From Ignavibacteriota bacterium (GTDB lineage: Bacteria > Bacteroidota > Ignavibacteria > UBA10030 > CAVZMI01), in contig CAVZMI010000023.1 of assembly GCA_963776275.1 (NCBI GenBank), positions 224,001-288,000 of the forward strand: a stretch of 64,000 bases of DNA, in the 5' to 3' direction. The notes under the pieces were generated by a model. That model searched no databases, was not told where the DNA came from, and was given only the letters and a program-made list of their open reading frames with translations. Made by a program: the position numbers and the translations under genes. Within the stretch, counting starts at the first letter, position 1. Each line of letters opens with the position of its first letter. Below, one piece after another: positions 563 through 54,546 of this stretch.

Positions 563-565
563 AGT

Positions 566-581
566 AATATGCGGCGTGCCC
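566..581. repeat. Remnant core/terminal repeat of the most distal att site (cassette end)
   Basis: AATATGCGGCGTGCCC matches the reverse complement of GGGCATGCCGCATAAT (1410-1425) at 14/16. Confidence 0.65.
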
Positions 582-674
582 TGACCAGTATTCTCAAATG
601 AGCGAGTGCAGACCCAGCCCACGGGCGGTGCAGACATGAGGTCGAAGAAAGCTGGTCGCTCGAGTAATCAAAGA

Positions 675-1310
675 TCACGGTTCCAGTTCAAAGCGCTCGA
701 TGCAGACGCTGTCTCCTTTCATGAGATTCTTCGGATTTGTCACCTTGATCTTTGGGTTGAAGGCCTTGGCTATCGCATCTGAGGGAGCACACTCAATGGC
801 GTATCCAATGTCCGCAGCGTTCATCTCTCGATACAGCTTGGCGATGAGGCATTCGGTGTACTTTGCCTCGTAAGCCCGGTCGGACTTCTCAACCACTTCG
901 TATGTGACGGCCTTGTCATAAGGTGGCGTAGCCAAATAGCCCTGGATGAGATCACCAAGCGCTTTCGGATCTCTCGAAGTGTAGCTTTTGGCCATAGAGG
1001 AGATAGCTTCGGCCATGTTGTCATCCGAAGCCTTTTTTAGGAGTTCAAGGAATTTCTTGCTGCCGAGTTTCTTTTGGAGATTCTGGAACAGCGGAACACA
1101 GTATCCATAGGTAAAGCGAAACACCTCCTCGGTGGTCATGCCCGAGTTATCCGAGTATTTCGGTTTTTGGAGCGATGCTTGCTGACCGGCAAGAGCCAAT
1201 GTAGCGCCAAACATACTGTGACAACCGAGGCAGAGGAGCGCGCCAGCCGGGAAGTCTCTTGACAAGAACTTTCTCCGGCTCGATTGGAGAGACTGATTCT
1301 TGGTTGACAT
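675..1310 (-). CDS. Cassette gene: L-2-amino-thiazoline-4-carboxylic acid hydrolase-like protein with Tat-like signal
   Basis: SRRKFL twin-Arg motif; C-terminal ECLIAKLYRE...IGYAIEC..D...FNPKIK....LMKGDSVC pattern. Confidence 0.7.
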   Translation of the reverse strand: MSTKNQSLQSSRRKFLSRDFPAGALLCLGCHSMFGATLALAGQQASLQKPKYSDNSGMTTEEVFRFTYGYCVPLFQNLQKKLGSKKFLELLKKASDDNMAEAISSMAKSYTSRDPKALGDLIQGYLATPPYDKAVTYEVVEKSDRAYEAKYTECLIAKLYREMNAADIGYAIECAPSDAIAKAFNPKIKVTNPKNLMKGDSVCIERFELEP

Positions 1311-1418
1311 GATAACCTCCAAAGTTGTGATGAAGTTGATGATGTCTCCGAGGTGTCACCTCACCGCCCGTGCGATAGGTGACGAGCTTTTTCAAAATCT
1401 ATGATGGTGGGGCATGCC

Positions 1419-1565
1419 GCATAATGTCCGCAGTAGCAACGCAGTGTCGCCGCGAACTCTGAACAATTCATTTCTCTGTGAGCGGCGGCATTGAGTGATC
1501 CCGACGACCTGTACGCCATTTCTTTAGCGGGAGTCGGGAGAGCGTCGTTGCTGCCGTTATTAGCC
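1419..1565 (-). repeat. attC-like recombination site 1 (variant AAT/ATT core)
   Basis: GCATAAT+GTCCGCAGTAGCAACG ... CGTTGCTGCCGTT+ATTAGCC; 16/13 geometry; inner stem CAGTGTCGCCGC/GCGGCGGCATTG. Confidence 0.75.
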
Positions 1566-1598
1566 GCCGGCTTTCGTCCCTCCACCGTTGGCTGACAA

Positions 1599-2530
1599 TT
1601 ACTTTTTAAAACTCGTTTTCAGCGCTCCGGTCGGACAGCTCTCAACGCAACGCTGACAGAGGATGCAATCGCCTTTGCCAATGCGTGTGCCCATTCTCAC
1701 ACGCTCAGCCACGGGAATGTCCATCGGACAGACTTCCGTGCACGCCTCGCATTCGTTGCACGCCTCGGCCTGGGCGGAGACATGGAGAAGCGCCGGGCGG
1801 CTCGTCCAACGCAGAATGAATCCGGTGGGACAAAGGTATTTGCAGAACGCGCGTTGGTCGTGCAGAGCCAGTGCCAGCGCAATAGCTGCCGCATAGTAAA
1901 CGGCAACGCCGGCAGCGACGGGCCAGATGCTGTTGCCGCGCATGTGTCCGTGGGCTCCGCCGGGCTGGGAGTCTAACACCAGCGCGAACAGAACTGCGGC
2001 CGCAAAACTGACGGCCACACCGACAAGCGGCGTCCAAACCCAAACACCCTTGCGCCGGCCCGAGCCCTTGCCGACGGGAAGACGCTCGAGCACCATCGCA
2101 CGCCAACACCCCCATCCACACAGAATTCGGCCAAAGATGAGCGGCCCGATGACGGTGGTCACCATCGTGTGACCGATAGCCGGGCCTACTGTTCCCAGGA
2201 TCAGGAGCTCGAAGAAGCCATCTATGTCGAGGTTGACGGCATCGACCAATGAGAACATGAGAATTCCCAATCCACCGGTGGCCAGGACGAGCCACCGCCA
2301 CCACTGTTTGCGGTCAGCGCGGGCAAAGGCGTAGCCGGCGAGAAATGGACCTTGGGAGAGCCCCGAACCGAAGAGAGCAAATTGCGAAACCCAATGTGTT
2401 TCCCCGGAACAGTACTACTGCAGCCAACGGCCAAAAGACGAGAAGGGAGATAGCGCTGACGACGAGCAACGCACGACTGACTCTACGGGGGGTCGTGCAC
2501 TCCCCGGTCACGGGATCCTCCGAGGATACG
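1599..2530 (-). CDS. 4Fe-4S binding membrane protein (NapH/MauN-like), frameshift near 2350; 5' end uncertain
   Basis: GRILCGWGC, FCKYLCP, CNECEACTEVCP and CILCQRCVESCP motifs; N-terminal TM part is in ORF 2314-2637. Confidence 0.75.
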
Positions 2531-2539
2531 CATACATTC

Positions 2540-2830
2540 GGATTCTTCTTCACCTGTAGAAATTTTATAAACATATAAATATACTTTATTACAATTGTTA
2601 AAACAACGATGTCCAAAATAATAATCGAACCAATCAAAAAAGATCACACCAATGATGCCAGATAATAACTCTCCTACAAAAACAAAAGCAATCAAAAACG
2701 ATTTATGAATTTCAACGATCCAACTGAGTACTGTGTGCCCACCTTGGATTGCTGTTTTCATTATTAAAAAGATTACGAATAAGAATTCGATAAATAGTAC
2801 TATTAAAAACGATTCTTTCAGTTTTGCACA
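2540..2830 (-). pseudogene. AT-rich small membrane protein, frameshifted or truncated
   Basis: Hydrophobic stretches split over ORFs 2483-2761 and 2314-2637 at an A-run near 2637-2641; abrupt GC shift near 2550. Confidence 0.4.
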
Positions 2831-3062
2831 TATCTTAATATGGTTGCGCCCTAACTATTGTTTATATGGTTTCCGCGTAAGACCACTGTATGTTCCATCG
2901 CAGCATTACACGCCACAGTCAGAATTTCCAAAAGCGCTAAGCCCAAACAAGTTATCGCCGCTCAGCTCACTGACAAGAGTGTTATGCGGTTTCGGCATAA
3001 CATGGCACGCCTTTCGTTCCTTCGTGCCGCAAAACGCCTTAAGAAAATGAATCTTTGCTTGC

Positions 3063-3226
3063 ACATAACGTCCGGCATGCCCACGCAGTACCGCCACGCC
3101 ATTTTGCAAATGAACAATTTCATATTTGCAGCGTGGCGGTATTGAGGGAGCACAATTTATTTTGCTTAATGAGTTTTTATTATCGTCTGACTAGTTGTGC
3201 GACCGTCGTGGGCACGCCTGTTATGC
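3063..3226 (-). repeat. attC-like recombination site 2
   Basis: ACATAAC+GTCCGGCATGCCCACG ... T+CGTGGGCACGCCT+GTTATGC; inner stem TACCGCCACGC/GCGTGGCGGTA. Confidence 0.9.
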
Positions 3227-3293
3227 GACGCGCAGCCGAACCACCAATTCGATCTCTTCGTGTAGATAGAAAAGTTGTAATTTTCTGTTGTCG

Positions 3294-3950
3294 TCACTGA
3301 GCCAGAGTATCGACCGTGACTGAAACAACTTTGCTCTTTTGGAACAGCTTAGTTTCTCGTATGGAACGACGAATTCTCTCGTCAAACCAAGTATTTTTCT
3401 CAGATATCTGAACTAGCTTGCCTTTCACGAACTGATAGCCGCATTCTGTACCACAACACGCACCAGATTGTTCCATTGTAGTCAACGTCCGTGTGGAACT
3501 ATCGGGTGTTAGTTCACTAAGTTTACTTAGCTCGTCATGGTAGAAGAATTTTTTTGTTTTCGGACTGAAAAGCCAAACATACGACCAACTCCCACCACTT
3601 CCATAATCGTATTCCAGCATCAGATCTAGATATCCATCGAAATTGAGATCCTTGGCTATGAATGCCCCTTCCCCAAAAGGATGGTATGTTTTGAAGTTTT
3701 TGAGGATTTGAAAAATTCCCGGTTTGTCTGACCGCTTGATTTCGATTCGTGATACCGAATGCACTGCCCCCGTCTCACTTGTATCTTCGTTAACGATGAA
3801 ATGCAATGTATATGGGGGTAGTGTAGAATGTATGGTAATGGTGTATTTGTAGTCGATTTCGTTGGGTTGACCACTTGTCAACCTATAGAAGCCTACCAAC
3901 AGGAACGCAATTCCAAGGATCATGAGTAATTTCAGTTTAGGAGTATTCAT
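3294..3950 (-). CDS. Cassette gene: exported hypothetical protein (XAC2610-like, DxNFDGYxD loop)
   Basis: 218 aa, N-terminal TM/signal, DLNFDGYLD Ca-binding-type motif; bounded by att sites. Confidence 0.75.
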   Translation of the reverse strand: MNTPKLKLLMILGIAFLLVGFYRLTSGQPNEIDYKYTITIHSTLPPYTLHFIVNEDTSETGAVHSVSRIEIKRSDKPGIFQILKNFKTYHPFGEGAFIAKDLNFDGYLDLMLEYDYGSGGSWSYVWLFSPKTKKFFYHDELSKLSELTPDSSTRTLTTMEQSGACCGTECGYQFVKGKLVQISEKNTWFDERIRRSIRETKLFQKSKVVSVTVDTLAQ

Positions 3951-4021
3951 TTCAATGAAAACCTTGAAGTATAGTTATACTATACATTGAAACCACCAAA
4001 CCTTTGGTGAGGCTGCGTGGC

Positions 4022-4139
4022 GCATAACGTCCGGCACAAAAATGACGTTGGGGCGCGAACTAATAATGACTAATTATTCTGTGAGCGACCCAATGTTTAT
4101 TCGGATTTCAAACTGCCAACATTTTTGTGCCTGTTAAGT
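4022..4139 (-). repeat. attC-like recombination site 3 (belongs to ORF-less cassette copy 1)
   Basis: GCATAAC+GTCCGGCACAAAAATG ... CATTTTTGTGCCT+GTTAAGT; identical to 6395-6512. Confidence 0.9.
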
Positions 4140-4219
4140 GCACGTGACCGCGGCACTTCACTATACTTCAGGACTTCAACTCGCGCCACTTCAAAGACTG
4201 CTAACGCCGCGGGCATTGC

Positions 4220-4328
4220 ACTTAACGTGTGCGGGCACTACGCAGTCCCGCTTGCCACTAAGAACAATTCAATTTTCTGTGGCAAGCGGGATTGAGTGTT
4301 CTTCACGTCGTAGTGCCCGCTGTTATGT
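4220..4328 (-). repeat. attC-like recombination site 4
   Basis: ACTTAAC+GTGTGCGGGCACTACG ... T+CGTAGTGCCCGCT+GTTATGT; inner stem TCCCGCTTGCCAC/GTGGCAAGCGGGA. Confidence 0.9.
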
Positions 4329-4340
4329 GCAGTTGCCCGT

Positions 4341-5817
4341 TCATCGTAATAAAATAAGTTTCTTTGTCTCAACAAAACCACCAGCTTCGAGTCTATAATA
4401 ATACACACCGCTTACAATACCTAATGGATTCCATTCTGTTGTATAAGTACCGGCACTCAAATCTTGCGACAAAAGCTGTACGACTTCCTGTCCTAATGTG
4501 TTGTAGATTCTTAATGAGACATGTACTTCTTTGGGGAGTGAGAATCGTATCGTTGTGGTCGGGTTAAAGGGATTTGGATAATTTTGCCAAAGGTCGAATG
4601 CAGTCGGAATATCTCCTTCAGGTTTAATACCTTCCACCCCAACATTTCCGTCAACATCCGTCTTAATTAGATATATCTGTAGACTGTCCCCGAAAGACCA
4701 GGTTTCACCAGTTATTATATAGCCACCGTCAGTAGTCTGCTGAACGGAGTGACCATAACCCGACTCATAGGTTTTTGTCCACAATGTATCCCCAGAAGAA
4801 TTGGTTTTAAATAGGTAAACATCATAATCGAGGGCATCGTAGGAACTCTGTCCCGTGATGATGTATCCACCGTCTGTTGTCTGCTGTATGGAGTTACCAT
4901 AAGAGTAACGTCTACCCTCATAGGTCCCCCCATATGTCCTTGTCCAAACGGTGTCCCCATTGTCATTAGTCTTGATTAGATAGACTGCAGTTCCAGAGAA
5001 TAAGTCCATATCCCCAACAACGATGTAGCCGCCATCAGTAGTTTGCTGAACGGACCGACCCCTTGAATGTGATGAGCCCGCCCCCTCGTAGGTCACTTGT
5101 CCAAAGTGTATCCCCGATTGTATTAGTTTTTATAAGGTAAATATAATCTTTGTAGGTAGCAAAATTTCTGATATATCCCTCAACGATGTAGCCCCCATCC
5201 ATGGTCTGCTTGATTTCGTTTCCCTCATCAGTATAATAAGTGAGCGTTCCCCCGTAGGTCCTGGTTCACAGTGTGTCCCCGGAGGAATTGGTTTTTATCA
5301 GGTAAACTTTGTAAGAACCCTTAGCCCCTGCAACGATGTATCCGCCGTCTGTAGTTTGCTGGACGGAACTACCAAATTCGTCGCCCGACCCCCCATAGGT
5401 TTTTGTCCACAGTGTGTCTCCGGAGAAATTGGTTTTAATTAGGTAAACCTGTATGCCACTACCGAAAGAGCCGGTACTTCCCGCAACAATGTAACCACCA
5501 TCCGTAGTTTGCTGAACGGAGTGCCCCCCATCATCACCCGCTCCTCCGTAGGTATTTGTCCAAAGTATATCCCCATTGGCGTTGGTCTTTACGAGGCAGA
5601 CATCGTAATTTCCTGCACCGAAGGAATTGGTCCTGCCCGCTACGATGTAGCCCCCATCAGTAGTCTGCTGGACGGATTGACCGTATTCTCTTCTAGTCCC
5701 CCCGTAAGTCCTTTCCCACCGCTGTTGAGAAACCGCAGGTTCGGCTAAGGTGAGGATCAGCAGGAAGAACAGGAGGGTAGAAAAGGTGAGCAAGTGAAGT
5801 TTGAAACGTAACTTCAT
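4341..5817 (-). CDS. Cassette gene: secreted beta-repeat protein with T9SS C-terminal sorting domain (two frameshifts near 5266 and 5096)
   Basis: Signal peptide; about 7 repeats of SVQQTTDGGYI.AG...YLIKTN.SGDTLWTKTYGG; C-terminal QNYPNPFNPTTTI...SGVYYYRL...TKKLILLR. Confidence 0.85.
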
Positions 5818-5949
5818 GGAAACCTCCTTATAATGATACTATTTGATAATGTTTCATAATCCAAGTATAGCATTTCATAGTACACCTCCACTAATTTTGC
5901 ACTCCTTTTCTTCCTATCGTCTGTAGGCAGATCTTGAAAGGGCAATTGC

Positions 5950-6097
5950 ACATAACGTCTGGGCCAACTACGCACCCCGACCGACCAACATTTTGTCAAT
6001 TGACGGGCGGGGGGAACGAACTCTATTTGTCGCGCCGAACTAGGCACCAACGTTGCCTTACCAAATGAAGTGAGTGTCGTAGTTGGCGCTGTTATGC
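5950..6097 (-). repeat. attC-like recombination site 5
   Basis: ACATAAC+GTCTGGGCCAACTACG ... T+CGTAGTTGGCGCT+GTTATGC. Confidence 0.9.
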
Positions 6098-6340
6098 GCT
6101 GGCGGCCGCCCCGCACCTGCGAATTATGACCTGCCTTGCTTTTTGACGCCTGTATGATCCCTTGCCACGGTGGGTATCGCACAGTCCCGCCCAAAACCTT
6201 TCGTATGACATGGGATGTTCATGCTTGGACCGCCAGTGCGCGTCAATTCCATCCCACCCGTGCCCTTGAAAAACGTGATTGCACTCTGGACAAATCCGAG
6301 GGCCGGTCTTCGGTACCATTTTTTCGCAACATCTGCACAT
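6092..6340 (-). CDS. Cassette gene: small Cys/His-rich (Zn-finger-like) protein
   Basis: CRCC, CPEC, H...H, C..H; RBS-like GGAGG upstream; fills a 0.3-kb cassette; stop TAA lies in the core site. Confidence 0.65.
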   Translation of the reverse strand: MCRCCEKMVPKTGPRICPECNHVFQGHGWDGIDAHWRSKHEHPMSYERFWAGLCDTHRGKGSYRRQKARQVIIRRCGAAASA

Positions 6341-6394
6341 GTTATACTAACCTCCGTCTGTTTTGTCTGGTAATTATTCGGGGCGGCCGCTTGT

Positions 6395-6512
6395 GCATAA
6401 CGTCCGGCACAAAAATGACGTTGGGGCGCGAACTAATAATGACTAATTATTCTGTGAGCGACCCAATGTTTATTCGGATTTCAAACTGCCAACATTTTTG
6501 TGCCTGTTAAGT
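6395..6512 (-). repeat. attC-like recombination site 6 (ORF-less cassette copy 2)
   Basis: Identical to 4022-4139. Confidence 0.9.
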
Positions 6513-6592
6513 GCACGTGACCGCGGCACTTCACTATACTTCAGGACTTCAACTCGCGCCACTTCAAAGACTGCTAACGCCGCGGGCATTGC

Positions 6593-6726
6593 ACTTAACG
6601 TGTCGGCAAACACCGCCGTGCCGTTTGGCGTATATTAATGATTCAATTTTCCTCACGCCAAACGGCATGGAACGACCACCATAATCCTTCCCAATAAAGG
6701 GAGTGCCGGTGTTTGCCGTGTTAGGC
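6593..6726 (-). repeat. attC-like recombination site 7
   Basis: ACTTAAC+GTGTCGGCAAACACCG ... C+CGGTGTTTGCCGT+GTTAGGC; inner stem CCGTGCCGTTTGGCG/CGCCAAACGGCATGG. Confidence 0.9.
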
Positions 6727-6754
6727 GAAGTTGTTTTGCATTTGCGGAAAACGC

Positions 6755-7252
6755 TTAATGTTTCACAAGGGACTTACGAATGCGGTTATTGATCCCTTGC
6801 AGTGTATCTGTTTCAATTTGATGTTCCCAATAGCGAAGAACTTTCCATTTACACTTTCTCAGGATTCGAGTTTGTCGGACATCTCGCCTTCTGTTGTCGA
6901 GAATTTTTTCCTTCCACCAGAGCGTATGTGAGTTAGGAACCTTAAAATGAATGGGACAGCCGTGCCAAAAGCATCCATCAAGGAAGAGGCACACTTTATC
7001 CTTTGGAAACACAATATCCGCTTTTATCTTCAGCAGGGGCTCGGGTCTTACATTTGTACGAAATCTTAATCCAGCTTTTTTAAGGAAGATACGTAACCTT
7101 TGTTCCTGTTTGGTCTCGTGTCCTGTATTGCTTTGCATTACACGATGTACAAGGGGAGATGATGCACTAGGCGCACGAGATCGAATTGACTGTCTTGGCC
7201 GAGAGGCCTTTCTTCTATTGGTTGGTTTGGCTGTCCGTACTGACACTGTCAA
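6755..7252 (-). CDS. vsr: Very-short-patch repair endonuclease
   Basis: MQSN...TKQE, ADIVF, FLDGCFWHGCP, WKVLRYWEH motifs. Confidence 0.92.
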   Translation of the reverse strand: MTVSVRTAKPTNRRKASRPRQSIRSRAPSASSPLVHRVMQSNTGHETKQEQRLRIFLKKAGLRFRTNVRPEPLLKIKADIVFPKDKVCLFLDGCFWHGCPIHFKVPNSHTLWWKEKILDNRRRDVRQTRILRKCKWKVLRYWEHQIETDTLQGINNRIRKSLVKH

Positions 7253-8256
7253 ATTATTTTTGAGTCTGATGATCGTTTGTATTCTGCTTTTTCCTCACCG
7301 ACACTGATGTGAAAGGCATTTTCCGTCATACTAAAGCTAATTGGAGGTAATTCGTCGGGTGTCGCCTCAAGAGCCTGCTGCATCGGGGCTTTGACATATT
7401 TTTCCAAAAAGACGGTCATCACCTCACCAGCGGCTTTTTCGAGGTGCCGCCAAGCTTCATCTCCGACAAATGTAGTGCCACCAGCATCCTTGAATGCAGC
7501 AACCAATTCAGTGAGTTTCGGGTTTGGTGTTGGATCAAGAACGATGAGAACGGGTTTGTATCCACTTTGTTTGCAGTCTGTTGGAAAATCAACTTCTTCC
7601 TGCCAGCGACCTTGTCCCGATGCAGCGATGGTAACTCGAATCTTGATCTCGTATGCTAACTTATCTCGGATGCAATCAACTTGACGCCCTTTCGAGCCAT
7701 CATCGTGTCGTTTGATTGGACTTGCCTTAGCGCTAAAGGAAGCACCTCCGATTGCATTGGCGATTATTGGTTCGAAAAGGTAGCCAGTTTCTTGTCCAGC
7801 TCTATTGTCGATATCGAACAGCCACTTTCTCCATAGGAGGAACCCAGCTAGAGCTTGAGGGCTCATTTGCCCATACTGCAGGAGCGTCCGTGGACCTACT
7901 TGATCCATGGTTGGAACAGCTTGGTATTCAAGTATCCGAGCGTATTTCAGCCTGCTTTTTTGCAGGGTTGCCAAACAAGAGAAGTATGTATCAGCGTCCG
8001 GGATCAGTTTGAAAAGGCGTTCAATAAGCATGTAAAAGTCTAACTTAGTGAGTTCAAGCTTACGGGGATCGGCCTCGTCGAAGAATTCTGGAAAGCTTAT
8101 TTTAACCTCAGGAAACTTCTTAAGGATTTTCAAATCACGAACGATCGTTGCGACGAGGAAGGCACAAGCTTCATCTGAAAGGCCTGTGCCTAATTCACCG
8201 CCGCCAGCCGCCCTTGCCTTTTCAACGAGCGACTTCTGAGATTGTGTTATTGCCAT
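7249..8256 (-). CDS. Putative type II restriction endonuclease (PD-(D/E)XK-like)
   Basis: Lies between a C5-MTase and Vsr with overlapping stop/start codons; GYLFE...QVDC...YEIK catalytic-like pattern. Confidence 0.75.
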   Translation of the reverse strand: MAITQSQKSLVEKARAAGGGELGTGLSDEACAFLVATIVRDLKILKKFPEVKISFPEFFDEADPRKLELTKLDFYMLIERLFKLIPDADTYFSCLATLQKSRLKYARILEYQAVPTMDQVGPRTLLQYGQMSPQALAGFLLWRKWLFDIDNRAGQETGYLFEPIIANAIGGASFSAKASPIKRHDDGSKGRQVDCIRDKLAYEIKIRVTIAASGQGRWQEEVDFPTDCKQSGYKPVLIVLDPTPNPKLTELVAAFKDAGGTTFVGDEAWRHLEKAAGEVMTVFLEKYVKAPMQQALEATPDELPPISFSMTENAFHISVGEEKAEYKRSSDSKII

Positions 8257-9491
8257 AAAGCTATTTGCTCCAGTCCGATTTCTATGCGAGTAGTGGGAAA
8301 CCTACGTCTAATGCGGTATGTAATATCTTCAAGTACAGGACTCTTTCCGCTTGAGACTGTAGGAACAAAAGACAGTAATGCTCCATTCTTAAAAGACTGA
8401 ATGTTTGAAACTTTTTCAAGATCAAGTTGTAGATTGAGAGCAATTACTTCAGCAAGACGTGGTGGAACAGCATTCCCAATTTGTAGGATACATTCAGTGG
8501 TATTTCCAATAAAGATGAAGTCATCAGGGAAACTTTGAATGCGAGCACACTCGCGAAGTGTTAAGGTTCGATCATCAATAGGATGGATGAATTCTGATGT
8601 GGCACCACTCGTAATTGCCTTCGACGGTTGATCGTCTCTCAACCGTCTCAGTCCTGCGGGAGCTCCACCTCTTCGTTCTGTTGGGGTTCCGTCCATTACT
8701 CTTCTAAACGCTCTGCGTCGATAACTCTCATGCCATAACTCAGTAGGTAGGTCTTTCATCGTCTGACCTGGTTTCAGAAGGCGGACACGTTCAATGTCCT
8801 GCTCGGATAGTGGACGATAATAATGGCCATCTGGAAAACCGGGTGGCAACAGAGTAGGACGTGGTAAACCCCTAAGTGCATCGGCTAGCGTCGGACACGG
8901 AGGGAGATGCTTGAAGGCCTTTGATGCCCCAGGAGCTCCGTAAGCCGAATAAGTCGGTTCTGGGAACCGAGGAGACCATCCCAAGCCGCCAATTGCTATT
9001 ACTCGCTTGCGATGCTGAGGAACTCCGAAGTTTGCAGCGTTTATTTTTCGAAGATGGATCTGATAGCCTACGTCAACCAATGGTTCAAGTAGATCGAACA
9101 CTCTATTCCCATTATCTGCAGTTAGAAAACCCTCGACGTTCTCGAAGACAAATGCTTTTGGTTTGTGTTGGACAACTAGTTCTGAAAAAACTCTGACAAG
9201 TGTGTTTCTATGGTCATCTGAACGACGCATTCCCGCTGAGGAGAATCCCTGACAAGGTGGCCCTCCTATAATCACATCCGTGGATGGAATAATAGTTGAT
9301 TCGGTTATATTATCTGTCAGGATATGGTCTTCAAAGTTCCTTCTGTATGTCCTCGTTGCTGATTCATTGGAATCTATAGCAACAACGCAAGTAAATCCCG
9401 CCTTTTGAAAACCAAGCGAGAGCCCACCAGCACCGCAGAACAAGTCTGCGTAGGTCATATTGTTATTATGTCCTTGGTCTATTTCCAACAT
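8247..9491 (-). CDS. dcm: DNA (cytosine-5)-methyltransferase
   Basis: DLFCGAGG, GGPPCQGFS, ENV, PQHRKR, RECARIQSFPD, QIGNAVPP motifs. Confidence 0.96.
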   Translation of the reverse strand: MLEIDQGHNNNMTYADLFCGAGGLSLGFQKAGFTCVVAIDSNESATRTYRRNFEDHILTDNITESTIIPSTDVIIGGPPCQGFSSAGMRRSDDHRNTLVRVFSELVVQHKPKAFVFENVEGFLTADNGNRVFDLLEPLVDVGYQIHLRKINAANFGVPQHRKRVIAIGGLGWSPRFPEPTYSAYGAPGASKAFKHLPPCPTLADALRGLPRPTLLPPGFPDGHYYRPLSEQDIERVRLLKPGQTMKDLPTELWHESYRRRAFRRVMDGTPTERRGGAPAGLRRLRDDQPSKAITSGATSEFIHPIDDRTLTLRECARIQSFPDDFIFIGNTTECILQIGNAVPPRLAEVIALNLQLDLEKVSNIQSFKNGALLSFVPTVSSGKSPVLEDITYRIRRRFPTTRIEIGLEQIALWQ

Positions 9492-9568
9492 ATTGGTACT
9501 TCTTTACCCGTATTCGTTGCATGAAACATAATAAAAACTTATCAAAAGTCATAATGCAAAACAATTTC

Positions 9569-9701
9569 GCCTAACGTCTCGCCCAACAACGCAGCGCTTT
9601 TGCGAACTATAAATGGACCAATTCATTTGTGAAGCAAAAGCGTTGAGCGACAACAACTATACTCTATCAAAGATGGAGCGTCGTTGTTGGGCGTGTTATG
9701 C
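9569..9701 (-). repeat. attC-like recombination site 8
   Basis: GCCTAAC+GTCTCGCCCAACAACG ... T+CGTTGTTGGGCGT+GTTATGC; inner stem CAGCGCTTTTGC/GCAAAAGCGTTG. Confidence 0.9.
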
Positions 9702-9964
9702 GAAGCGCCCAAAGTCGCCTATTGGATACCACACGAAGCTAACGGTGTTACAAATAACGGGTGCCCCAACACAAGAATGCCGATCAAGAGTACAACATCA
9801 ATAATTTTATTACGTCCAGTTGATTTGCTGGATATACACATTTTACAAATTAATTTAGCTCCTTAGAGGTGTTAAAAATTTATTTTGTTATTATAACCCT
9901 TATTATTTTGGACAAATTATATTTGCATCTCTGCTTTGTTTATGTCATTCTTAAAAACTAAACT

Positions 9965-10390
9965 TTATGGACCTACATAACCACAACTGGAACAAATCTG
10001 TACCCCAGTAAGTCCAGCTTTTGGACCGTAGCCAGATGCACCGCAGCGCGGGCATTTTGGCCTAGAGGCAGTTACAATAGCCCAACAAGCTGGGCACACG
10101 GCCAAAAATGGTTTTCCATCTAATGTGGTATACGGTTCTGTCAATGCTGGGTGACCGATTTCGCCTTCAACTTGTCCACGATTAGAAGCGGGTACGAATG
10201 TGAATCGGCCAGTAGGTTTTCGACCACAAAAATTGCACGTATCATATTGAGGTTTAGAATTATTGTTCTTCGGATAATCTATCATATCTTCATGTTTCTT
10301 CTCTGATGCAAAGGTACCACGACCGCATCTAGGACATTTAATTAATCCATTTGGTACCTTCTCTCCACAGATGGCACATATTTTTTCCAT
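9965..10390 (-). CDS. Cassette gene: multi zinc-ribbon hypothetical protein
   Basis: Six CxxC motifs (CAIC, CPRC, CNFC, CPAC, CPRC, CSSC); likely start ATG at 10390. Confidence 0.7.
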   Translation of the reverse strand: MEKICAICGEKVPNGLIKCPRCGRGTFASEKKHEDMIDYPKNNNSKPQYDTCNFCGRKPTGRFTFVPASNRGQVEGEIGHPALTEPYTTLDGKPFLAVCPACWAIVTASRPKCPRCGASGYGPKAGLTGVQICSSCGYVGP

Positions 10391-10611
10391 ATGATTTATC
10401 GCCTTCTTAGTTTTTTTAGTATATACTTTGTATATATAAATATTGATTATATGGTTTCCATATAATACGCCTTCGCCATTGCCCTTCGGCATAACACGTC
10501 TCTGCTGTTTGCTCGTCAGGTTCCTTGTTTTTCCGGTTCTTGTATTAATAATAGTATAAATGGGTAACGATTCTATTGATATAGTCAGTCCTTTCTATCT
10601 TTGGGCGTTTC

Positions 10612-10728
10612 GCATAACGTACTGCGGCAACACGCCGTGCCGCCATTCCATGAAACATGAAATGACGGCGGCATGGAGCGAGCACCTTGAATATGAAACG
10701 GCGAGCGTCGTGTTGCCGCATGTTAGTT
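10612..10728 (-). repeat. attC-like recombination site 9
   Basis: GCATAAC+GTACTGCGGCAACACG ... T+CGTGTTGCCGCAT+GTTAGTT. Confidence 0.9.
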
Positions 10729-10994
10729 GCAGGCGCCGCTTCCACTGCCCTTTTCCCAAAGGGATCAATCCGGACAGTTGGCGCGCGTTCTCCATGGTGG
10801 CAGTGCCTTGCCAGTTCTCTTGCCAATCGTGGCATACTGCAGACGCTAAGGACACGTTGAACTTTCCGAACAATTGACTGCTTCCTCGTGACTGCCGCAC
10901 GCTTGGGATGACGACCCATGCGCAATATCATAGTCTCATCGTTCATTCCACCGCGGTTCCAAATATTTCGGCCGGTCATTTTCGTGAGATTTTT

Positions 10995-11369
10995 TCAGTC
11001 GGTGCATAGATTTATTGTCGGGAGCATAAATTGTCCTACAAAGAATTTATTGTCAATCGTTACAATCGCATTGTAGTATGAGCCGATCCCAAGGAATCCG
11101 CTATTGTAGGTCACCATCAGTTCGACGCTGTGGCCGCTATAAGTTCCAGTTGCATTGATCCCTTTCCAATCAAAAACAGGGACCGATTTAGTTATTACGG
11201 TTGAATCATTGACTATTACCTTGATAGCTGGATATAGTCCCGATTTCTCAACTCTGACCTGCCAAGTCTCACTAGTTGCACACGGCGATTGATATGTTGC
11301 GAACTTCGATGAGTAGCAGCCCGCGATTAGAAAACCGAATAGTAAAAAGAACGGTAACTTTCTCTTCAT
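10995..11369 (-). CDS. Cassette gene (first in array): hypothetical lipoprotein
   Basis: MKRK + hydrophobic segment + LIAGC lipobox. Confidence 0.75.
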   Translation of the reverse strand: MKRKLPFFLLFGFLIAGCYSSKFATYQSPCATSETWQVRVEKSGLYPAIKVIVNDSTVITKSVPVFDWKGINATGTYSGHSVELMVTYNSGFLGIGSYYNAIVTIDNKFFVGQFMLPTINLCTD

Positions 11370-11627
11370 ATTCTGCCTTTTTCTGTCTGATTTACTCCGA
11401 GACCGGAACTGCGGCTAAAGATGACCTTGACTGACACCTTTGGAACAGCTTGGTCATCGGCGCCATGGTAAGCAACGGTCGCCACGGAGATACCAACTCG
11501 TCTCTTCATTGATTGCCCTTGATAAAAATCCTCCACGAATTTATCAGGTCTCATGTTAAGTGTTCCAGCATTGCCGCGCGCCAACAAGTCGCAACCACTC
11601 TTTTAATAACTTTCTGGCGGCGCTTGC

Positions 11628-11662
11628 AACTAACATTTGCAACAACGCTATATAGCGTTGTT
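11628..11662 (-). other. attI-like primary recombination site overlapping the 3' end of the recombinase
   Basis: Lone core AACTAAC that completes the first cassette's terminal repeat, then 6 nt, then perfect 22-bp palindrome AACAACGCTATATAGCGTTGTT; no full attC partner arm. Confidence 0.7.
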
Positions 11663-12583
11663 CTCTTTTTTATCTGTGTCAGGAAGATAAATCTTTCTAT
11701 CTTTTTCTTCCTTCGGTAGCTCTTCTATCATTGAGTCGAGCGGACTTTTAATCTTCCCGATCGTACGAGTACTTATATGCGTGTAAATTTCTGTCGTTTT
11801 AATACTGCCATGCCCTAATAACTCTTGAATGTACCGTATATCCGTTCCATGTTCCAATAGAGCTGTCGCAAATGAATGCCGGAGTGTATGCATAGAAACC
11901 GTCTTGCGGATACTGGCTGATTTCACTGCACGTTCAATGACTTCCTGGATGCTCCGTTCTGATAAATGTCGTCCCGGTTTTGCACCGGGAAAAAGCCATC
12001 CGACTTCAGTAATCCTATATAATTGTACATAAGCATGGAGAGCACTCAGTACCGCTCTTGAAAGAATTGTGTATCGATCCTTTTTATGCTTTCCTTCTCG
12101 TACATGAATAACCATCCTTACCACATCAAGATCTTCGGTTCGCAAACGAACAACCTCGCCCACGCGTAATCCGCTTCCATAGGCGATCATCAACATTACT
12201 TTATGTTTTAGATTATCAATTTCTCTGAATATTCTTAGAACCTCTCCCTGATTCAGTACATCAGGGAGTCTTTTCTCCTTCATCGGCCGAGGTATTGAAT
12301 CGATCTTAAAAGGCATTCCATATAAATCGACATACAGTAATCGTAGAGCGTTAAAAACCTGGTTAATGCTCGATGCCTGGAATTGACGCTCCTCGATCAA
12401 GTAAAGCAGGTACGAGTGAATATCGTCCTCTGTCACATCGCGCGGGTGCCGCGGTCGAAAATAACTCACAAAGGAATGAAGCCAGCTAATATACGATTTG
12501 ATCGTCTTCGAACTATAGTTTTTCAGGCGCATCTCGCGCCGAACTGTCTCGAAAAACCCCGGCTTACTTTGTAACTTCTCCAT
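11648..12583 (-). CDS. Integron-integrase-like tyrosine recombinase lacking the IntI insertion
   Basis: N-terminal MRLKNYS.KTIKSY...RHP SAM-like domain; catalytic GLRVGE, GKHKKDR, HTLRHSFA, LGH, EIYTH; only ~20 aa between DRYTIL and WLFP. Confidence 0.92.
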   Translation of the reverse strand: MEKLQSKPGFFETVRREMRLKNYSSKTIKSYISWLHSFVSYFRPRHPRDVTEDDIHSYLLYLIEERQFQASSINQVFNALRLLYVDLYGMPFKIDSIPRPMKEKRLPDVLNQGEVLRIFREIDNLKHKVMLMIAYGSGLRVGEVVRLRTEDLDVVRMVIHVREGKHKKDRYTILSRAVLSALHAYVQLYRITEVGWLFPGAKPGRHLSERSIQEVIERAVKSASIRKTVSMHTLRHSFATALLEHGTDIRYIQELLGHGSIKTTEIYTHISTRTIGKIKSPLDSMIEELPKEEKDRKIYLPDTDKKENNAI

Positions 12584-40400: not shown

Positions 40401-40614
40401 CTCTCATCTTCCCTCGGCTTTGATAGTTTAAATCAAAGTCTTAGCAGGAGTTAGCACCTGGACGTCTCGGGCTTTTATCGGATGAGTGCCCCTCGATCCC
40501 TCCGTCCCGACTTTCAATCAGAACGGGGTCGGATTCGGGACAATCCCTCGTGGAGCTCGGGATCGGTTGCTAAGGTGTCATCGGGCCTGTTCCCTCGACC
40601 TTTCTTGATAAGAG
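40401..40614 (-). ncRNA. SAM-I riboswitch with long P3 insertion
   Basis: Minus strand CTCTTATCAAGAAAGGTCGAGGGAACAGGCCCGATGACACCTTAGCAACC...GGTGCTAACTCC...GGGAAGATGAGAG upstream of metY. Confidence 0.92.
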
Positions 40615-44403: not shown

Positions 44404-44474
44404 GCGGGGTTAGTTGATTGGTTCAACGCGAGCTTCCCAAGCTTGAAAAACGGGTTCGATTCCCGTACCCCGCT
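44404..44474 (+). tRNA. tRNA-Gly(CCC)
   Basis: Acceptor GCGGGGT/ACCCCGC, anticodon arm CGAGC-TTCCCAA-GCTTG, T-loop GTTCGATTC; D-arm slightly atypical. Confidence 0.85.
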
Positions 44475-44613
44475 CTTGTCAATGATGAATTACGCCTACG
44501 GCCCGTAGGGTATATTGACTTGTTCGCCAGATCCCGACCCCAACAAAGTCGGGGGGAGTAGGCGGAAGCGAAGCGTAGGCGGAATAGTGAATGTGCGGCG
44601 GAAGCCAGATAAG

Positions 44614-44642
44614 AAAAGCTCACAGGAATCCTGTGAGCTTTT
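44614..44642. terminator. Bidirectional intrinsic terminator
   Basis: AAAAGCTCACAGGAATCCTGTGAGCTTTT between convergent genes. Confidence 0.8.
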
Positions 44643-44672
44643 CTGTTCTTTACCACCATGATGAGCTAAAAA

Positions 44673-45308
44673 TTATTTCAACAGCGACATCTTCTTTGTT
44701 TGGGTGAAATTCCCGGCCTGTATTCTGTATAAATAGATTCCGCTCGGCATATTTGTTGCCTCAAAAATTATTTCATGGTGGCCTGCGGTTTCTTCTCCAT
44801 TCACCAACGTTATTATTTCTCTACCGATGATGTTGAATACTTTTACGGTAACTAGACTTTTTTGCGGGAGATCGTATCGTATTCTCGTAGATGGATTAAA
44901 TGGATTCGGGTAATTTTGTTCCACGGTAAATCGATCGGGTCGATCGGCATTATCTTTGATGCCCGTTGCAGAATTTATTACATGTATGATGCCCGACATT
45001 CCTACGCCTCCGGGAGCGCCGTGTATGACACAGTAGTATCGAAAATCCCCGACGGATGTGAATACTCTGTCATACGTCCATGTCGAGGATTAAGCTGGTC
45101 CATTTGTAAAACTCCCGTCATCTGCCATAACATTATGGAATCCGCTCTGATTTTCCCATCGTACTGTATCTCCCACATTGATCGTCAGATTGGCAGGAGT
45201 AAACGTCATACCTGAGGCGACGACGATGTGGAGTGTCTGTGTAAGAACTGTGGCTGGAGCCACGACGGACAAAATTATTACTGCAATCATTGAAAGCGTA
45301 AGTCGCAT
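44673..45308 (-). CDS. Plastocyanin/azurin-like cupredoxin with T9SS C-terminal domain, frameshift near 45085
   Basis: FTPANLTINVGDTVRW...HNV; YYCVIHG...GMSG; QNYPNPFNP tail. Confidence 0.85.
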
Positions 45309-46502
45309 CGTATACCTCCTTATAAAAATTATTAATTGTAGTGGAATCCTATATGTGTGTAACAATCAAAACCGATAAACCGTTTCTTTTGAGAAATACT
45401 GATGAGGGATAATGGTCGAATACCAGGCTGTTTTGGGTAACTGTTAATACGGGATATCGGAGATCGCTCCCCTTTACATGTTCGGCTTGGGCCCCATCGT
45501 AAAGACGATTGTCCCCCCATTCTTCACTTCATCATACGAAAGGTATGCATTCTCCCGCAGTTTTCTATTCAATCGGACTGATTGAATAAAGATCCCTGTC
45601 GGAGTCGGGACCAATCTGGATCATCCCGAATGGTGCAACAGCGGCTGGATAGATATCCCCTCACCCTGCGTTCCCACAAAAGGACGGATATAATCAACCG
45701 GTGAATGTTTATCGTTAAAATTCTTTTCTGTATTTTCATCAGCTTAATTAAACCCAAAGGGAGGTGTCGTTGTCAAAACCAGAAGAGACTTTGGAAAGAT
45801 ATCTCATCGCCAATTGTCCATCAGAAATCTCCTTCTTTTACGAAACAGGTAAGACTTTTTCATGAGTGACATTGGTAGAAGTATTATCAGATTATAGCGT
45901 CATTGAAGGTGGTGGAAGATAGTGAAATTTCATGTGGCGTTAAAGATGTGATGTGGCCAGCCTTTCATTGTGGCAATTTGATGAATTCCGTGGGAGTTCC
46001 TTCCGCGGACTTGCTTTTCGGAATAATTTCATTTATCTTTTCTCGCACTCATAGAAAGAGGATGGAGCTATACATTTGCGATAGGGGGTGGTTTCCCTCC
46101 CATGGAACTTGCATTCTGTCAGCTCGAGATAATTTGGGAAAATAGGCGGGCAAATTTGGAATACAGTGCTCGATCGAAACAATACCCGAAGAACATACAA
46201 ATCTCAATTTTCCCCGAGATGAGGTTAACCGGTTTTTCGATGGAGAGTTCAACCGTTGCCGAGACGTTGTAGAATGAAAGTGTCTCTGCAATAAAAACCT
46301 TTGCCCGGAACCATCCTGTTCGAAATGGGCTTCAATCTGTGGAGTGTTATTAAAGTGGGGCACTTCTTTACGGGTTTATTTGTTATAATTTTTAGTTCCC
46401 GGAAGTGTTTACATGAATGGCTGACAAAGTCCTCTTCTATGATTCAGTAACCAATATGCGAAAAACATTAAACCATCAATACAGATAGGAAGTCTAATTT
46501 CT

Positions 46503-46811
46503 ATGCAGTACAACCGTTATTATAGTAATCCGCGGGGAAGACGCGAAGGAAACACTGCACCAAAGCATGTACGGCGGTACACCGCAACAGTGGGTGAAAC
46601 TTCATTTGTCCGCAATTCGCCTAACGTATACACTCACGTTGTCGTCGGACGAAAGGGAATAACACCGCTTGAAGTGCTTAAATGGTGTAACTCTGGAACT
46701 CAGGCCAACTCCGAAGCAGATATCCGCATCAAAGCCGGTTATGCCAACGTCCAGGTCGTCGAAGTCGTCGCTTCGGCGTATAAGAAAGAGTTCTTCCCGG
46801 ATAAAAAGTAA
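46503..46811 (+). CDS. Hypothetical protein
   Basis: 102-aa ORF with ATG start in otherwise non-coding region. Confidence 0.6.
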   Translation: MQYNRYYSNPRGRREGNTAPKHVRRYTATVGETSFVRNSPNVYTHVVVGRKGITPLEVLKWCNSGTQANSEADIRIKAGYANVQVVEVVASAYKKEFFPDKK

Positions 46812-47003
46812 GTTTTTGCTTTTTAACTTCGATGGAACATCCTGACGAGAAGGGCATCAGGAATGTTCTGGGAAGGAACAGCATATCCAAAGTAATCTCG
46901 CCGGCCGAGTGAGACTTCCAGGAGGTGTAACTTTCTCGTTTCTCTTCCGTAGAATTCATTATTAAACCTCCGATTATCCATTTATTATTAAAGAGTACGG
47001 GAA

Positions 47004-47963
47004 TTGAAAACATTCTATCTGATCTGTGTATTTTCCCTTTTTGTGAATATTATAAGCGCACAAACTTCGCTGCAGGACGGCATCAAGCTTCTCGAGAAAA
47101 AGGAGTATGATCAGGCACGAAGTGTTTTTGAGACCATTCTGAAAAGTGACAATAACAATGCCGAAGCACATATACTTCTCGGCCGGTTGCTCATGGGATA
47201 CTATAGGAATTTCGATGATGCCGAAGAACATCTTGAAAAGGCAGTTGAGCTGGACGGTGGAAATGCCGAGTATCACTGGTATCTTGGAAATGTCTATGGT
47301 GCACAAGCGCAGGTGGCAGGTTTTTTTTCAAAGATATCGTATGCAAAAAAGTTGAAAACCGAATTTATCAAGGCGGTAGAGTTAAATCCTGACGATATCC
47401 GTTTCAGGGAATCACTAATGGTATACTACCTGAGGGCGCCAGGAATTATTGGTGGGAGTGTTGAGAAAGCGAAGGAACAGGCGAAGGAAATGATGCGAAT
47501 AAATGCCTGCTCCGGACATTTTGCCTATGCGCAGATTGCAATCTATGAGAAGAATTCCGGATGGGCTGAACAGGAATTAAAGCAGGCAATACAGGCCGAA
47601 CCTAATAATTGGAGACCATATCACCGCCTCGGTTATCTCTACGTTGAACAAAAACGGTACGATGAGGCAATTGCACAATTCCAACGGTATGTGACTCTCG
47701 CTCCGGACGATGCCAACAGCTATGATAGTCTGGGAGAAGGATATTTCTATAAGGGGGATTTCAGCGCTGCCATCCCACAGTTTCAGAAAGCTCTTTCTGT
47801 AAATCCGAAATTCGGATCTTCACTCTATAACCTCGGCCGGTCCTTTGAGAAAAATAATAACAAAAATGAAGCACTGAAGAACTACAGGAAATATCTTGAG
47901 GTCGAGCCTGAAGGTCAATATGCCGATGAAGTAGAGAAAAAAGTTAAAGAACTCTCGGAATGA
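47004..47963 (+). CDS. Tetratricopeptide repeat protein
   Basis: Signal peptide and multiple TPR consensus repeats. Confidence 0.9.
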   Translation: MKTFYLICVFSLFVNIISAQTSLQDGIKLLEKKEYDQARSVFETILKSDNNNAEAHILLGRLLMGYYRNFDDAEEHLEKAVELDGGNAEYHWYLGNVYGAQAQVAGFFSKISYAKKLKTEFIKAVELNPDDIRFRESLMVYYLRAPGIIGGSVEKAKEQAKEMMRINACSGHFAYAQIAIYEKNSGWAEQELKQAIQAEPNNWRPYHRLGYLYVEQKRYDEAIAQFQRYVTLAPDDANSYDSLGEGYFYKGDFSAAIPQFQKALSVNPKFGSSLYNLGRSFEKNNNKNEALKNYRKYLEVEPEGQYADEVEKKVKELSE

Positions 47964-47988
47964 TTATACGAACGATCGGATAGATACA

Positions 47989-48348
47989 CTATTTTATCTC
48001 CTGATACTCTGCAGGGATATGAAGGTTCTTGATAATTTGCATAACTTCACGGACAAATGCACATTCGCATTTGGTGGGACAGCTGTGAAGGTTGGACTCG
48101 TGGAGGCAATACCCGGGACAGTCAGAATCTCCGGTTTTGCGGTTCGTGAATATGGGACCGTGATACAGATCGAAAAATTTGCCGGCTTTAACGGCAAGTG
48201 TCGTTCTGCAGGAATGATTGAAGAGAAATAATCCCACTCGCAGGTGATTGAAATTCACCTGATACCCGATAAGCGTGAGCGACGGATCAGCGAGAAATTT
48301 ACTACGCGTTTCCCATGTTGTTTTACATAATGGACAGGTCTTAAACAA
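47989..48348 (-). CDS. Cys-rich hypothetical protein
   Basis: CPLC...W..R..FL.DP, LFLFNHSC, CPGYC, CPTKCEC. Confidence 0.75.
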   Translation of the reverse strand: MFKTCPLCKTTWETRSKFLADPSLTLIGYQVNFNHLRVGLFLFNHSCRTTLAVKAGKFFDLYHGPIFTNRKTGDSDCPGYCLHESNLHSCPTKCECAFVREVMQIIKNLHIPAEYQEIK

Positions 48349-48501
48349 TGTGCTATGCCCCGTGAAGTAACTTCTTCTTTATTCTCACAACGGAATATTT
48401 AGCAGGGAAGTTCCTGCCCCCGAGCTCATATCTGCCCATCTCCGTTTATTATATATTGTGAAATATCGCCGAAATATTGTAAATCTGAAACTCGAACTGG
48501 G

Positions 48502-49008: not shown

Positions 49009-49072
49009 CGGTTGATTCTCTCCTTTTTACTCAGTGCAGTTTTACTCAGTGCAGTAATATTTTCTTATGATA

Positions 49073-49402
49073 TCAGTCAACAATAAATAACCTCGCTCCA
49101 ATTTCCGTCGATGACCGGTGTGGATAGATATCGTCGGAGACCTGATAGCTTGTACCGGGAGCGAGTACGAACTCTCTTCCGTCGGCAAGCTCGGTTACTA
49201 ATTCACCTTCCAGCACTAGAAGCACATGACCGCGGGTGCACCAGTGGTCTGCGATGTACCCCGGCGTGTACTCAACCATACGCACACGGATATTCCCCAT
49301 CTCGAAGGTTCGCCAACGTGCCTCGCCCCGTAATCCCATGTGTGTTGTGGGTGTGATTGTATTCCAGTCGATTGTGCAAAATGGAACATCCTGGATTTGC
49401 AT
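49073..49402 (-). CDS. DHCW-motif cupin-fold protein
   Basis: RMVEYTPGYIADHWCTRGH, LFIVD. Confidence 0.92.
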   Translation of the reverse strand: MQIQDVPFCTIDWNTITPTTHMGLRGEARWRTFEMGNIRVRMVEYTPGYIADHWCTRGHVLLVLEGELVTELADGREFVLAPGTSYQVSDDIYPHRSSTEIGARLFIVD

Positions 49403-54515: not shown

Positions 54516-54546
54516 TAAAAAAGCCTTAAAAATCAAGGCCTATAAG

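Follow-up and report, generated by a model that had tools for sequence, protein, structure and literature searches.

A tyrosine recombinase without the IntI additional domain at the head of an integron-like cassette array in an Ignavibacteriota bacterium

In the Ignavibacteriota bacterium represented by assembly GCA_963776275.1, positions 224,001 to 288,000 of contig CAVZMI010000023.1 (hereafter the window, i.e., the whole stretch of 64,000 nt that was analysed) contain a gene for a tyrosine recombinase, which is followed on the same strand by a row of gene cassettes bounded by hairpin-forming sites. An earlier note on this DNA, made from the sequence alone, had read the row as a non-canonical integron-like cassette system, driven by a recombinase that lacks the insertion typical of integron integrases (IntI). 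The features of the locus are given below, in the order in which they follow the gene; ORF stands for open reading frame, R1 denotes the covariance model that was built from eight of the window's sites, and "ends" refers to complementarity between the two ends of one cassette.

11648-12583, minus strand: tyrosine recombinase of 311 aa, with IntI-like N- and C-terminal parts and without the IntI additional domain
11632-11660, minus strand: attI-like junction, consisting of an 18-nt palindrome (11643-11660) over the stop codon, an 8-nt spacer and the core GTTAG with its G at 11634
10612-10728, minus strand: site S1, closing cassette 1 (10618-11633; ORFs 11366-11587 and 10995-11369); R1, 100 bits
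9569-9701, minus strand: site S2, closing cassette 2 (9575-10617; double zinc-ribbon protein 9965-10492); R1 and cassette ends
6593-6726, minus strand: site S3, closing cassette 3 (6599-9574); R1, ends 19/20
8247-9491, 7249-8256 and 6755-7252, minus strand: cargo of cassette 3, i.e., Dcm methylase, ApaLI-like nuclease and Vsr, respectively
6395-6512, minus strand: site S4, closing the ORF-less mini-cassette 4 (6401-6598); R1 and duplication
5950-6097, minus strand: site S5, closing cassette 5 (5956-6400; 82-aa ORF 6092-6340); R1 and cassette ends
4220-4328, minus strand: site S6, closing cassette 6 (4226-5955); R1 and cassette ends
4022-4139, minus strand: site S7, closing cassette 7 (4028-4225), the second copy of cassette 4; R1 and duplication
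3063-3226, minus strand: site S8, closing cassette 8 (3069-4027; ORF 3294-3950); R1 and cassette ends
1419-1565, minus strand: site S9 (3′ core ATTATGC), closing the irregular cassette 9 (1425-3068; 4Fe-4S protein 1599-2270); R1, ends 8/20
564-1424, minus strand: cassette 10 (ATC-hydrolase family ORF 675-1322), with a degenerate 5′ core at 564-580 and no hairpin after it

The cassette ORFs all lie on the minus strand and, in a Pfam scan of 14 array ORFs, show no kinship among themselves, so that the cargo is co-oriented and unrelated, as had been claimed; none of the 14 matched a transposase family. The cargo also includes a lipoprotein-like ORF, and the 4Fe-4S protein is a membrane protein. 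The array had been taken to end at position 566, which proved wrong, since three further sites lie to the left of the window at contig positions 220528-222935 (1.1-3.5 kb past its left edge). A complete restriction-modification module, composed of the Dcm methylase, the ApaLI-like nuclease and Vsr, is carried as the single 2.98-kb cassette 3 (6599-9574), and near-identical end sequences of this cassette occur with other cargo in two related genomes. The repeat protein of cassette 6, which has a sorting tail of the type IX secretion system, is split into ORFs 5266-5817 and 4341-5096 and may be frameshifted or broken. In a related genome (locus L054 of genome G409, contig C1, 2585-10448) three adjacent cassettes of 2.3-2.8 kb are each a three-gene module; the middle protein carries what we take to be an RHS-core-like motif, which would suggest toxin-immunity cassettes.

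The recombinase matches the Pfam families PF13495 and PF00589. Its residues R140, K165, H232, R235, H258 and Y267 are invariant in an alignment of 60 homologous sequences, thus the R-K-HxxR-H-Y set described from the sequence is indeed intact, and exactly 21 residues separate DRYTIL from WLFP, where about 20 had been reported. The scoring against integron integrase and Xer models, proposed in the earlier note, left the protein below all cut-offs, with TIGR02249 (integron integrase) as the best NCBIfam model: 237.7 bits against a cut-off of 265, split into two stretches, compared with 219.8 bits (cut-off 220) for the XerA-type model NF040815, 178.8 bits (cut-off 335) for XerC and 178.1 bits (cut-off 330) for XerD. 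The additional domain of IntI comprises about 35 residues near patch III (the I2 helix). The closest solved relative of the window recombinase is VchIntIA (PDB 2a3v, 156 bits), and the alignment of the two breaks where query residues 184-204 (21 residues) stand opposite residues 179-239 of the chain (61 residues), so that about 40 residues are absent from the query. When 21 relatives were aligned with 20 full-length IntI of the same order, two blocks of about 29 and about 10 columns were empty in the relatives, and in the region of the IntI insertion these short relatives resemble Xer. The AlphaFold model (mean predicted local distance difference test score 87.1) has no additional helix between residues 188 and 209, and its top Foldseek match is again 2a3v (E-value, E, 1e-16; template modelling score 0.66), XerA ranking lower. 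The supposed lack of the IntI insertion is therefore borne out both by the split, sub-threshold match to TIGR02249 and by the absence of both IntI-specific insertions relative to the 20 canonical proteins.

A phylogeny, likewise proposed beforehand, was obtained as a quick maximum-likelihood tree of 80 rows with two Xer-like proteins of the window's genome as outgroup. In this tree the window recombinase belongs to a clade with a support of 97 in the Shimodaira-Hasegawa-like approximate likelihood ratio test (SH-aLRT), apart from the clade of full-length IntI, which has a support of 99 and a long stem. The base of the tree is without resolution, and both clades lie within a radiation of relatives that have no additional domain, many of which carry an N-terminal extension of about 100 residues. 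The distribution of the clade recombinase is patchy (15 of 401 genomes of the phylum sample), and the window's genome (3.7 Mb, 96% complete) contains separate Xer-like genes beside two copies of the short recombinase. For one close pair of clade recombinases the ratio of nonsynonymous to synonymous substitution rates (dN/dS) is 0.05 over 291 codons, while in more distant pairs the proportion of nonsynonymous differences is about 0.2 and synonymous sites are saturated; judging by these codon comparisons, purifying selection evidently acts on the short recombinase.

The sites that separate the cassettes share one anatomy. On the minus strand a site runs from a YTAAC core through a 12-bp stem and a variable interior, in which a second hairpin is frequent, to the stem partner and a GTTAR core, and every intergenic gap downstream of the recombinase gene contains one. 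R1 finds nine sites in the window, which is the number that had been claimed, all on the minus strand and between 1419 and 10728 (90-123 bits, E 1e-19 to 1e-27), and has no match elsewhere in the 64 kb. An architecture scanner that is blind to sequence (TAAC, 1 nt, 11-nt stem, partner stem, 3-5 nt, GTTR) gave eight matches on both strands of the whole window, and all eight are R1 sites. As to the cores, inverse elements of the AAC/GTT type are present as described, but the strict RYYYAAC/GTTRRRY form fails, the real cores being YTAAC and GTTAR; a search with the strict pattern produced few matches, mostly elsewhere, and was replaced by the covariance model. RNAalifold, applied to eight sites, revealed compensatory changes at 19 of 22 pairs, and Rfam has no match within the array at gathering score. 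In the whole genome of the window there are 38 R1 matches, which form several clusters.

The structure was checked independently on 115 sites (113 distinct) that come from 21 loci of other genomes and were aligned to R1. In the distinct sites 94.6% of cells pair (64.5% after shuffling), the covariation score is 0.70 (0.17 after shuffling and at most 0.10 with partners slid) and double-sided changes occur at 21 of 25 pairs; the alignment was fitted to the model and is thus biased in its favour, yet the slid-partner controls keep this bias and still fail. The YTAAC and GTTAR motifs are kept in 111-112 of the 113 distinct sites and the TAAC/GTTA pairs in 104-112, whereas the outer three positions are variable and often off the strict consensus. 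The stem is usually regular, with 12 nt on its 5′ side in 106 and on its 3′ side in 98 of the 115 sites. The 5′ spacer is a single A and the 3′ spacer measures 4 nt (RNAC), each in 114 of 115 sites, and because of this inequality the R′-L′ arm is 3 nt longer in 90 of the 115 and the shorter arm in none. On the bottom strand AAC is followed by a G and by a 3-nt bulge, which adjoins the predicted cleavage point.

The two ends of each cassette had been said to match each other and not the adjacent site. Over 65 cassettes of this and related arrays, the median complementarity between the first 20 nt of a cassette and its own last 20 nt is 17/20 positions, compared with 10/20 for the adjacent site or the two ends of one site (n = 76) and 10/20 for random pairs; the rule thus holds in general and breaks at cassette 9, the ends of which reach 8/20 only. 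Inside that cassette, at 2985-3005, there is a minimal palindrome (GTTATGC, 7 nt, GCATAAC) that may be the remnant of a lost site. A recurrent exception in the own-end pairing is position 11, with A at the cassette start and G in the complement of the cassette end, so that the bottom strand would carry a G.T pair here and the top strand an A.C mismatch.

Since end complementarity alone leaves it open which core is cut, it is the duplicated cassettes that identify the core. Mini-cassettes without an ORF, each composed of a site and 80-200 nt of content, exist in several copies within arrays, two here and three 100%-identical ones in a related genome. In the window, 4022-4254 and 6395-6627 form a 233-nt duplicate (96% identical), the copies being alike from the GTTAAG core through the following hairpin and about 60% alike upstream of the core. 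The three 205-nt cassettes of the related genome (L059, 6130-8036) have following sites that are 100% identical and preceding sites that are 66-75% identical, and an 849-nt cassette of another genome is present in three copies over two arrays, again with following sites 100% and preceding sites 57-67% identical. Because duplicates keep the downstream and not the upstream site, the mobile unit appears to be the cargo together with the following site, with the joint at G/TT of the 3′ core (the slash marks the point of exchange), and cassette exchange is predicted to take place there, as in integrons. The opposite polarity, in which the plus strand is the top strand and the crossover falls in the 5′ core, was ruled out on the same ground. 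Identical cassettes in different neighbourhoods argue for recent movement.

Between the gene and the array lies the attI-like junction. Insertion had been placed at 11628-11634, and the own-end complementarity of the first cassette does begin at the G at 11634 (17/18). The junction was mapped in 32 loci by a search of the stretch from the gene to the first site for the complement of that site's flank. In 22 of them the first cassette's start falls, with 13-17 of 18 matches, on a GTTA located 17-140 nt past the stop codon; this GTTA is preceded by a palindrome of the type ACGCAAT/ATTGCGT and then by about 9 nt, often reading TTACAGAT. At four other loci the mapped GTTA is preceded by the apparent end of an undetected site, and the remaining ones comprise four poor matches, one of 12/18, one shifted by an insertion and one unreadable. 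The contig ends at the GTTA core, or no more than 20 nt from it, in 4 of 21 loci inspected.

The link between recombinase and sites was followed in a clade defined by a phmmer score of at least 240 bits to the window protein; the sample consisted of the short-type loci listed in the order sample with apparent downstream room and of further loci, including those of the phylum sample. Where at least 1500 nt were available downstream, 27 of 28 clade loci have one or more co-oriented sites (up to 12) after the gene. With less than 1500 nt the figure is 8 of 23, and in 12 of those 23 the contig stops within 250 nt after the gene. In none of the loci did a site lie upstream of the gene or on the opposite strand; the upstream sequence searched amounted to about 51 kb for the window and to a few kb at six further loci. 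The second recombinase gene of the window's genome, 98% identical and located on contig C22, is again followed by co-oriented sites. By contrast, in 21 canonical IntI loci of the same order (353,678 bases) R1 reaches E<=1 in three weak matches and E<=0.01 in none. Co-occurrence of the sites with this recombinase clade, which the earlier note had put forward as a check, is thus seen at 27 of 28 clade loci and at none of the 21 canonical ones, and the tie between them is, as far as these genomes tell, not local chance. In the order sample of 151 genomes R1 matches occur in 91, and full-length matches to TIGR02249 over its cut-off in 60; with the same model, split matches of the short type are numerous too, the comparison covering no more than 21 candidates per genome. 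The window's genome, with its 38 sites, has no full-length canonical IntI at E<=1e-30.

Relatives beyond the clade were collected by comparing an alignment of the extended relatives with one genome per species, which resulted in 80 loci from many phyla, including archaea. On 62 of these, R1 has six weak matches beyond the known Ignavibacteriota locus, all downstream and co-oriented. With the architecture scanner, the full set of 80 yielded 39 matches that are downstream and co-oriented (in 300 kb) versus 10 elsewhere; those 39 occupy 15 of the 80 loci, and 11 of the 27 loci whose downstream sequence reaches 5 kb or more. In Desulfitobacterium sp. Sab5 there are eight sites, seven of them of 74-78 nt, the junction reads ACGGTA/GTTA, the position-11 pattern is as in the window clade, and the 13 downstream ORFs of at least 70 codons are co-oriented with the recombinase bar two short ones. 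The same array grammar occurs in metagenome-assembled genomes of Nitrospirae, Bacillota and Spirochaetia. At a match on a Persicobacter megaplasmid no sites were found, and relatives on Clostridium plasmids, with about 40% identity, overlie the annotations 'site-specific integrase' and 'IS91 family transposase'. An extension of the claim to the whole family without the additional domain was considered and dropped, as most loci are siteless by the strict scanner and some stand beside IS91 transposases. Because only 15 of 80 loci have sites and because of the IS91 neighbours, the claim is limited to the window clade and the examples named here.

A further relative, on the plasmid NZ_CP041688.1 of Chryseobacterium sp. 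SNU WT5 (L205, 8764-18750), is annotated 'site-specific tyrosine recombinase/integron integrase' and has small co-oriented genes downstream. Two elements on the other strand break this row of genes, an IS110-family transposase and a group II intron maturase, and a relaxed scan gave only two weak sites. IS110-family elements and group II introns are both known to invade attC sites.

With canonical integrons the window system has much in common: a tyrosine recombinase nearest to IntI, a putative insertion site by its gene, promoterless, unrelated and co-oriented cassettes, a hairpin site that ends each cassette, YAAC/GTT cores with conservation of structure and not of sequence, a predicted exchange at G/TT of the 3′ core, duplicated cassettes, and restriction-modification (defence) cargo. 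It differs in that the recombinase has neither of the two IntI-specific insertions (about 29 and about 10 residues) and falls below the family cut-off. The sites differ as well. According to passages of Bouvier et al. (2009, PMC2727003), classical attC sites have extrahelical bases on the R″-L″ arm and undergo exchange in the R′ box, G is the usual base following AAC on the bottom strand, and self-pairing extends over 9-11 nt. In the arrays described here own-end complementarity extends over about 20 nt, the spacers measure 1 nt and 4 nt, the excess is on the R′-L′ arm, and there is no conserved extra base on the R″-L″ arm. The extrahelical polarity of canonical attC is taken from the literature in this comparison, and the branched sites of about 152 nt from the same order gave no reading of it.

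Canonical integrons of the same order share with these arrays the host lineage, and sometimes the genome, as well as hairpin arrays with CTAAC/GTTAG cores. However, their integrase is full-length (380-487 bits to TIGR02249), the array lies upstream of it and the ORFs are divergent. A hairpin scan of two such loci (L068, i.e., genome G440, contig C5, 16-9539, and L066) showed uniform branched hairpins of about 152 nt with CCTAAC/GTTAGG cores upstream of intI, a site family that is invisible to R1; at a third canonical locus (L076) a generic inverted-repeat search revealed no clear array. Co-orientation of integrase and array is by itself not new. Xer proteins (XerC, XerD, XerA) are of the same length class and likewise have no additional domain, whereas the window recombinase scores below their curated cut-offs, is patchy in distribution and is tied to arrays instead of a single dif-like site. 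Tyrosine recombinases adjacent to IS91 include relatives with about 40% identity, and none of the 14 array ORFs scanned against Pfam matches a transposase family.

Standard tools, if their attC model detects the sites, would probably label these arrays as attC-site clusters without an integron integrase (CALIN), because the neighbouring gene fails the IntI-specific profile; the difference from a CALIN is that a specific recombinase clade heads the arrays. Recombinases without intI_Cterm near attC sites were studied by Cury et al. (2016, PMC4889954), who had only four cases of an intermediate position, each with fewer than three sites, and judged proteins of this kind not to be IntI. Selection of IntI by the additional domain is stated in parts of Nemergut 2008 and Ghaly 2022, and sections of the IntegronFinder 2.0 paper report complete integrons in Ignavibacteriae and a few CALINs in Firmicutes. 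In literature outside subscription journals and supplementary files, no account was found of an IntI relative that has no additional domain and stands at the head of cassette arrays.

Taken together, the window most probably holds a working or recently working integron-like gene-capture platform, the integrase of which comes from a clade of IntI relatives without the additional domain (I2 helix). What the earlier note observed is confirmed, and its interpretation is supported, all of its proposed checks that were carried out having gone in its favour. On the evidence of the DNA, the layout is that of an integron system, with an integrase gene, an attI-like site and cassettes bounded by attC-type sites. 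The gene is followed on the same strand by the attI-like site (palindrome, about 9 nt, G/TTA) and then by cassettes, each composed of cargo and its own downstream hairpin site. In the proposed mechanism the window recombinase, as the presumed catalyst of cassette exchange, would recognise a folded single strand of each site by the YTAAC/GTTAR stem, the asymmetric 1-nt/4-nt spacers, the 12-bp stem and the variable top. Strand exchange at G/TT of the 3′ core would then excise cassettes as circles and insert them at the junction. Polarity may be set by the 3-nt bulge at the cleavage point together with position 11 (G.T on the bottom strand, A.C on the top strand), which would replace the extrahelical bases read by I2; both asymmetries would accompany an enzyme in which the helix for reading such bases is lost or absent. 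The sequences show the anatomy and conservation of the sites, their covariation and linkage to the clade, the boundaries of the cassettes and the occurrence of duplicated cassettes at different places, whereas catalysis by this protein, a single-stranded folded substrate and the functions given to the bulge and to position 11 are inferred.

Several points weigh against an active system of this kind. Recombination itself is inferred, no event having been observed. The additional domain is held necessary for the activity of canonical IntI, according to passages of two sources (PMC4889954; 10.1101/2022.02.06.479319), and function without it would require a different mode of recognition. R1 was made from the window's own sites, so the linkage test favours closely related site families. 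One clade locus of the 28 is without a site, with only 1.7 kb searchable downstream, and weaker or broken relatives (150-240 bits) give a mixed picture, two of them (L096 and L112) having no site in 10 kb. By a rough hand tally among the genomes listed, R1 matches also occur in about 15 of 32 genomes with canonical IntI only, so that in those genomes a canonical IntI may act in trans. Finally, the second recombinase copy (L061, contig C22, 9512-10735) is broken by about 290 bp right after the codon for the catalytic tyrosine.

One may ask whether the arrays are ordinary CALINs, served in trans by a canonical IntI, while the neighbouring recombinase performs e.g., Xer-like resolution or array maintenance. 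Canonical IntI are common in the order (60 of 151 genomes over the cut-off), several genomes contain both kinds of recombinase and some canonical-only genomes have R1 matches. However, no canonical IntI was found at E<=1e-30 in the window's genome with its 38 sites; canonical loci have divergent ORFs and another, upstream site family of about 152 nt, and sites of the kind described here are absent from the 21 examined; the short recombinase is always at the head of the array and co-oriented with it, with the conserved junction GTTA as the boundary of the first cassette; and the sites are without extra R″-L″ bases, unlike canonical attC as presented in passages of PMC2727003. Service in trans is therefore unlikely. 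Still less probable is a reading as decay, with an IntI that is now missing its additional domain next to an immobile fossil array. Nearness to IntI in sequence and fold, the broken second copy and the degenerate state of cassette 9 and of the end of cassette 10 would fit decay, but the short form is present undamaged at dozens of loci from different families, has a clade to itself (SH-aLRT 97) and is under purifying selection (dN/dS 0.05), identical cassettes occupy different positions as well as two arrays of one genome, and contigs break at the junction core. That the repeats are intergenic palindromes (terminators or elements like repetitive extragenic palindromes) piled up in an island, with the recombinase as a neighbour for unrelated reasons, is very improbable. 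The sites are GC-rich hairpins after ORFs and would double as terminators, yet they have a strict polarity and position with none on the other strand or upstream, cassette ends complement each other and not the neighbouring site, duplicated units are bounded exactly at G/TT, and YTAAC and GTTAR are kept in 111-112 of 113 sites.

Beyond the window, the gene-capture reading opens a broader proposal, which we put forward tentatively, as an idea that may or may not hold. The arrays could represent a second, ancient class of integrons, whose integrases never had the I2 domain or dispense with it and whose polarity is marked by the 3-nt bulge on the cleaved arm. Such a class would span phyla and take in Bacillota, a phylum regarded as almost free of integrons, would account for some of the CALIN arrays that so far lack an explanation and would belong to the radiation that gave rise to canonical IntI. 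The additional domain defines IntI and drives the computational detection of integrons, and the structural account of attC recognition rests on it. If the proposal is true, surveys systematically miss a class of integrons by labelling its arrays as orphan clusters, and there is a second route to the recognition of folded sites, in which the roles of extrahelical bases and bulges are directly testable. The clade would also provide living candidates for the gap between Xer and IntI in integron evolution, and cassette capture would reach lineages thought to be without it. The recombinase, with the short sites of 62-76 nt present in some lineages, could serve as a new recombination tool.

Two further observations concern the second recombinase copy on contig C22. 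The ORF inserted in it continues in frame into the recombinase's own C-terminal tail and begins with what is presumably a small GIY-YIG domain. Downstream, at L061 11035-12349, an ORF of 333 aa, which by eye resembles a transposase of insertion sequences, truncates the lipoprotein-like gene of the first cassette. Elsewhere in the window, and unrelated to the array, there are an S-adenosylmethionine (SAM) riboswitch at 40401-40614 and five tRNA genes at 44404-55820.

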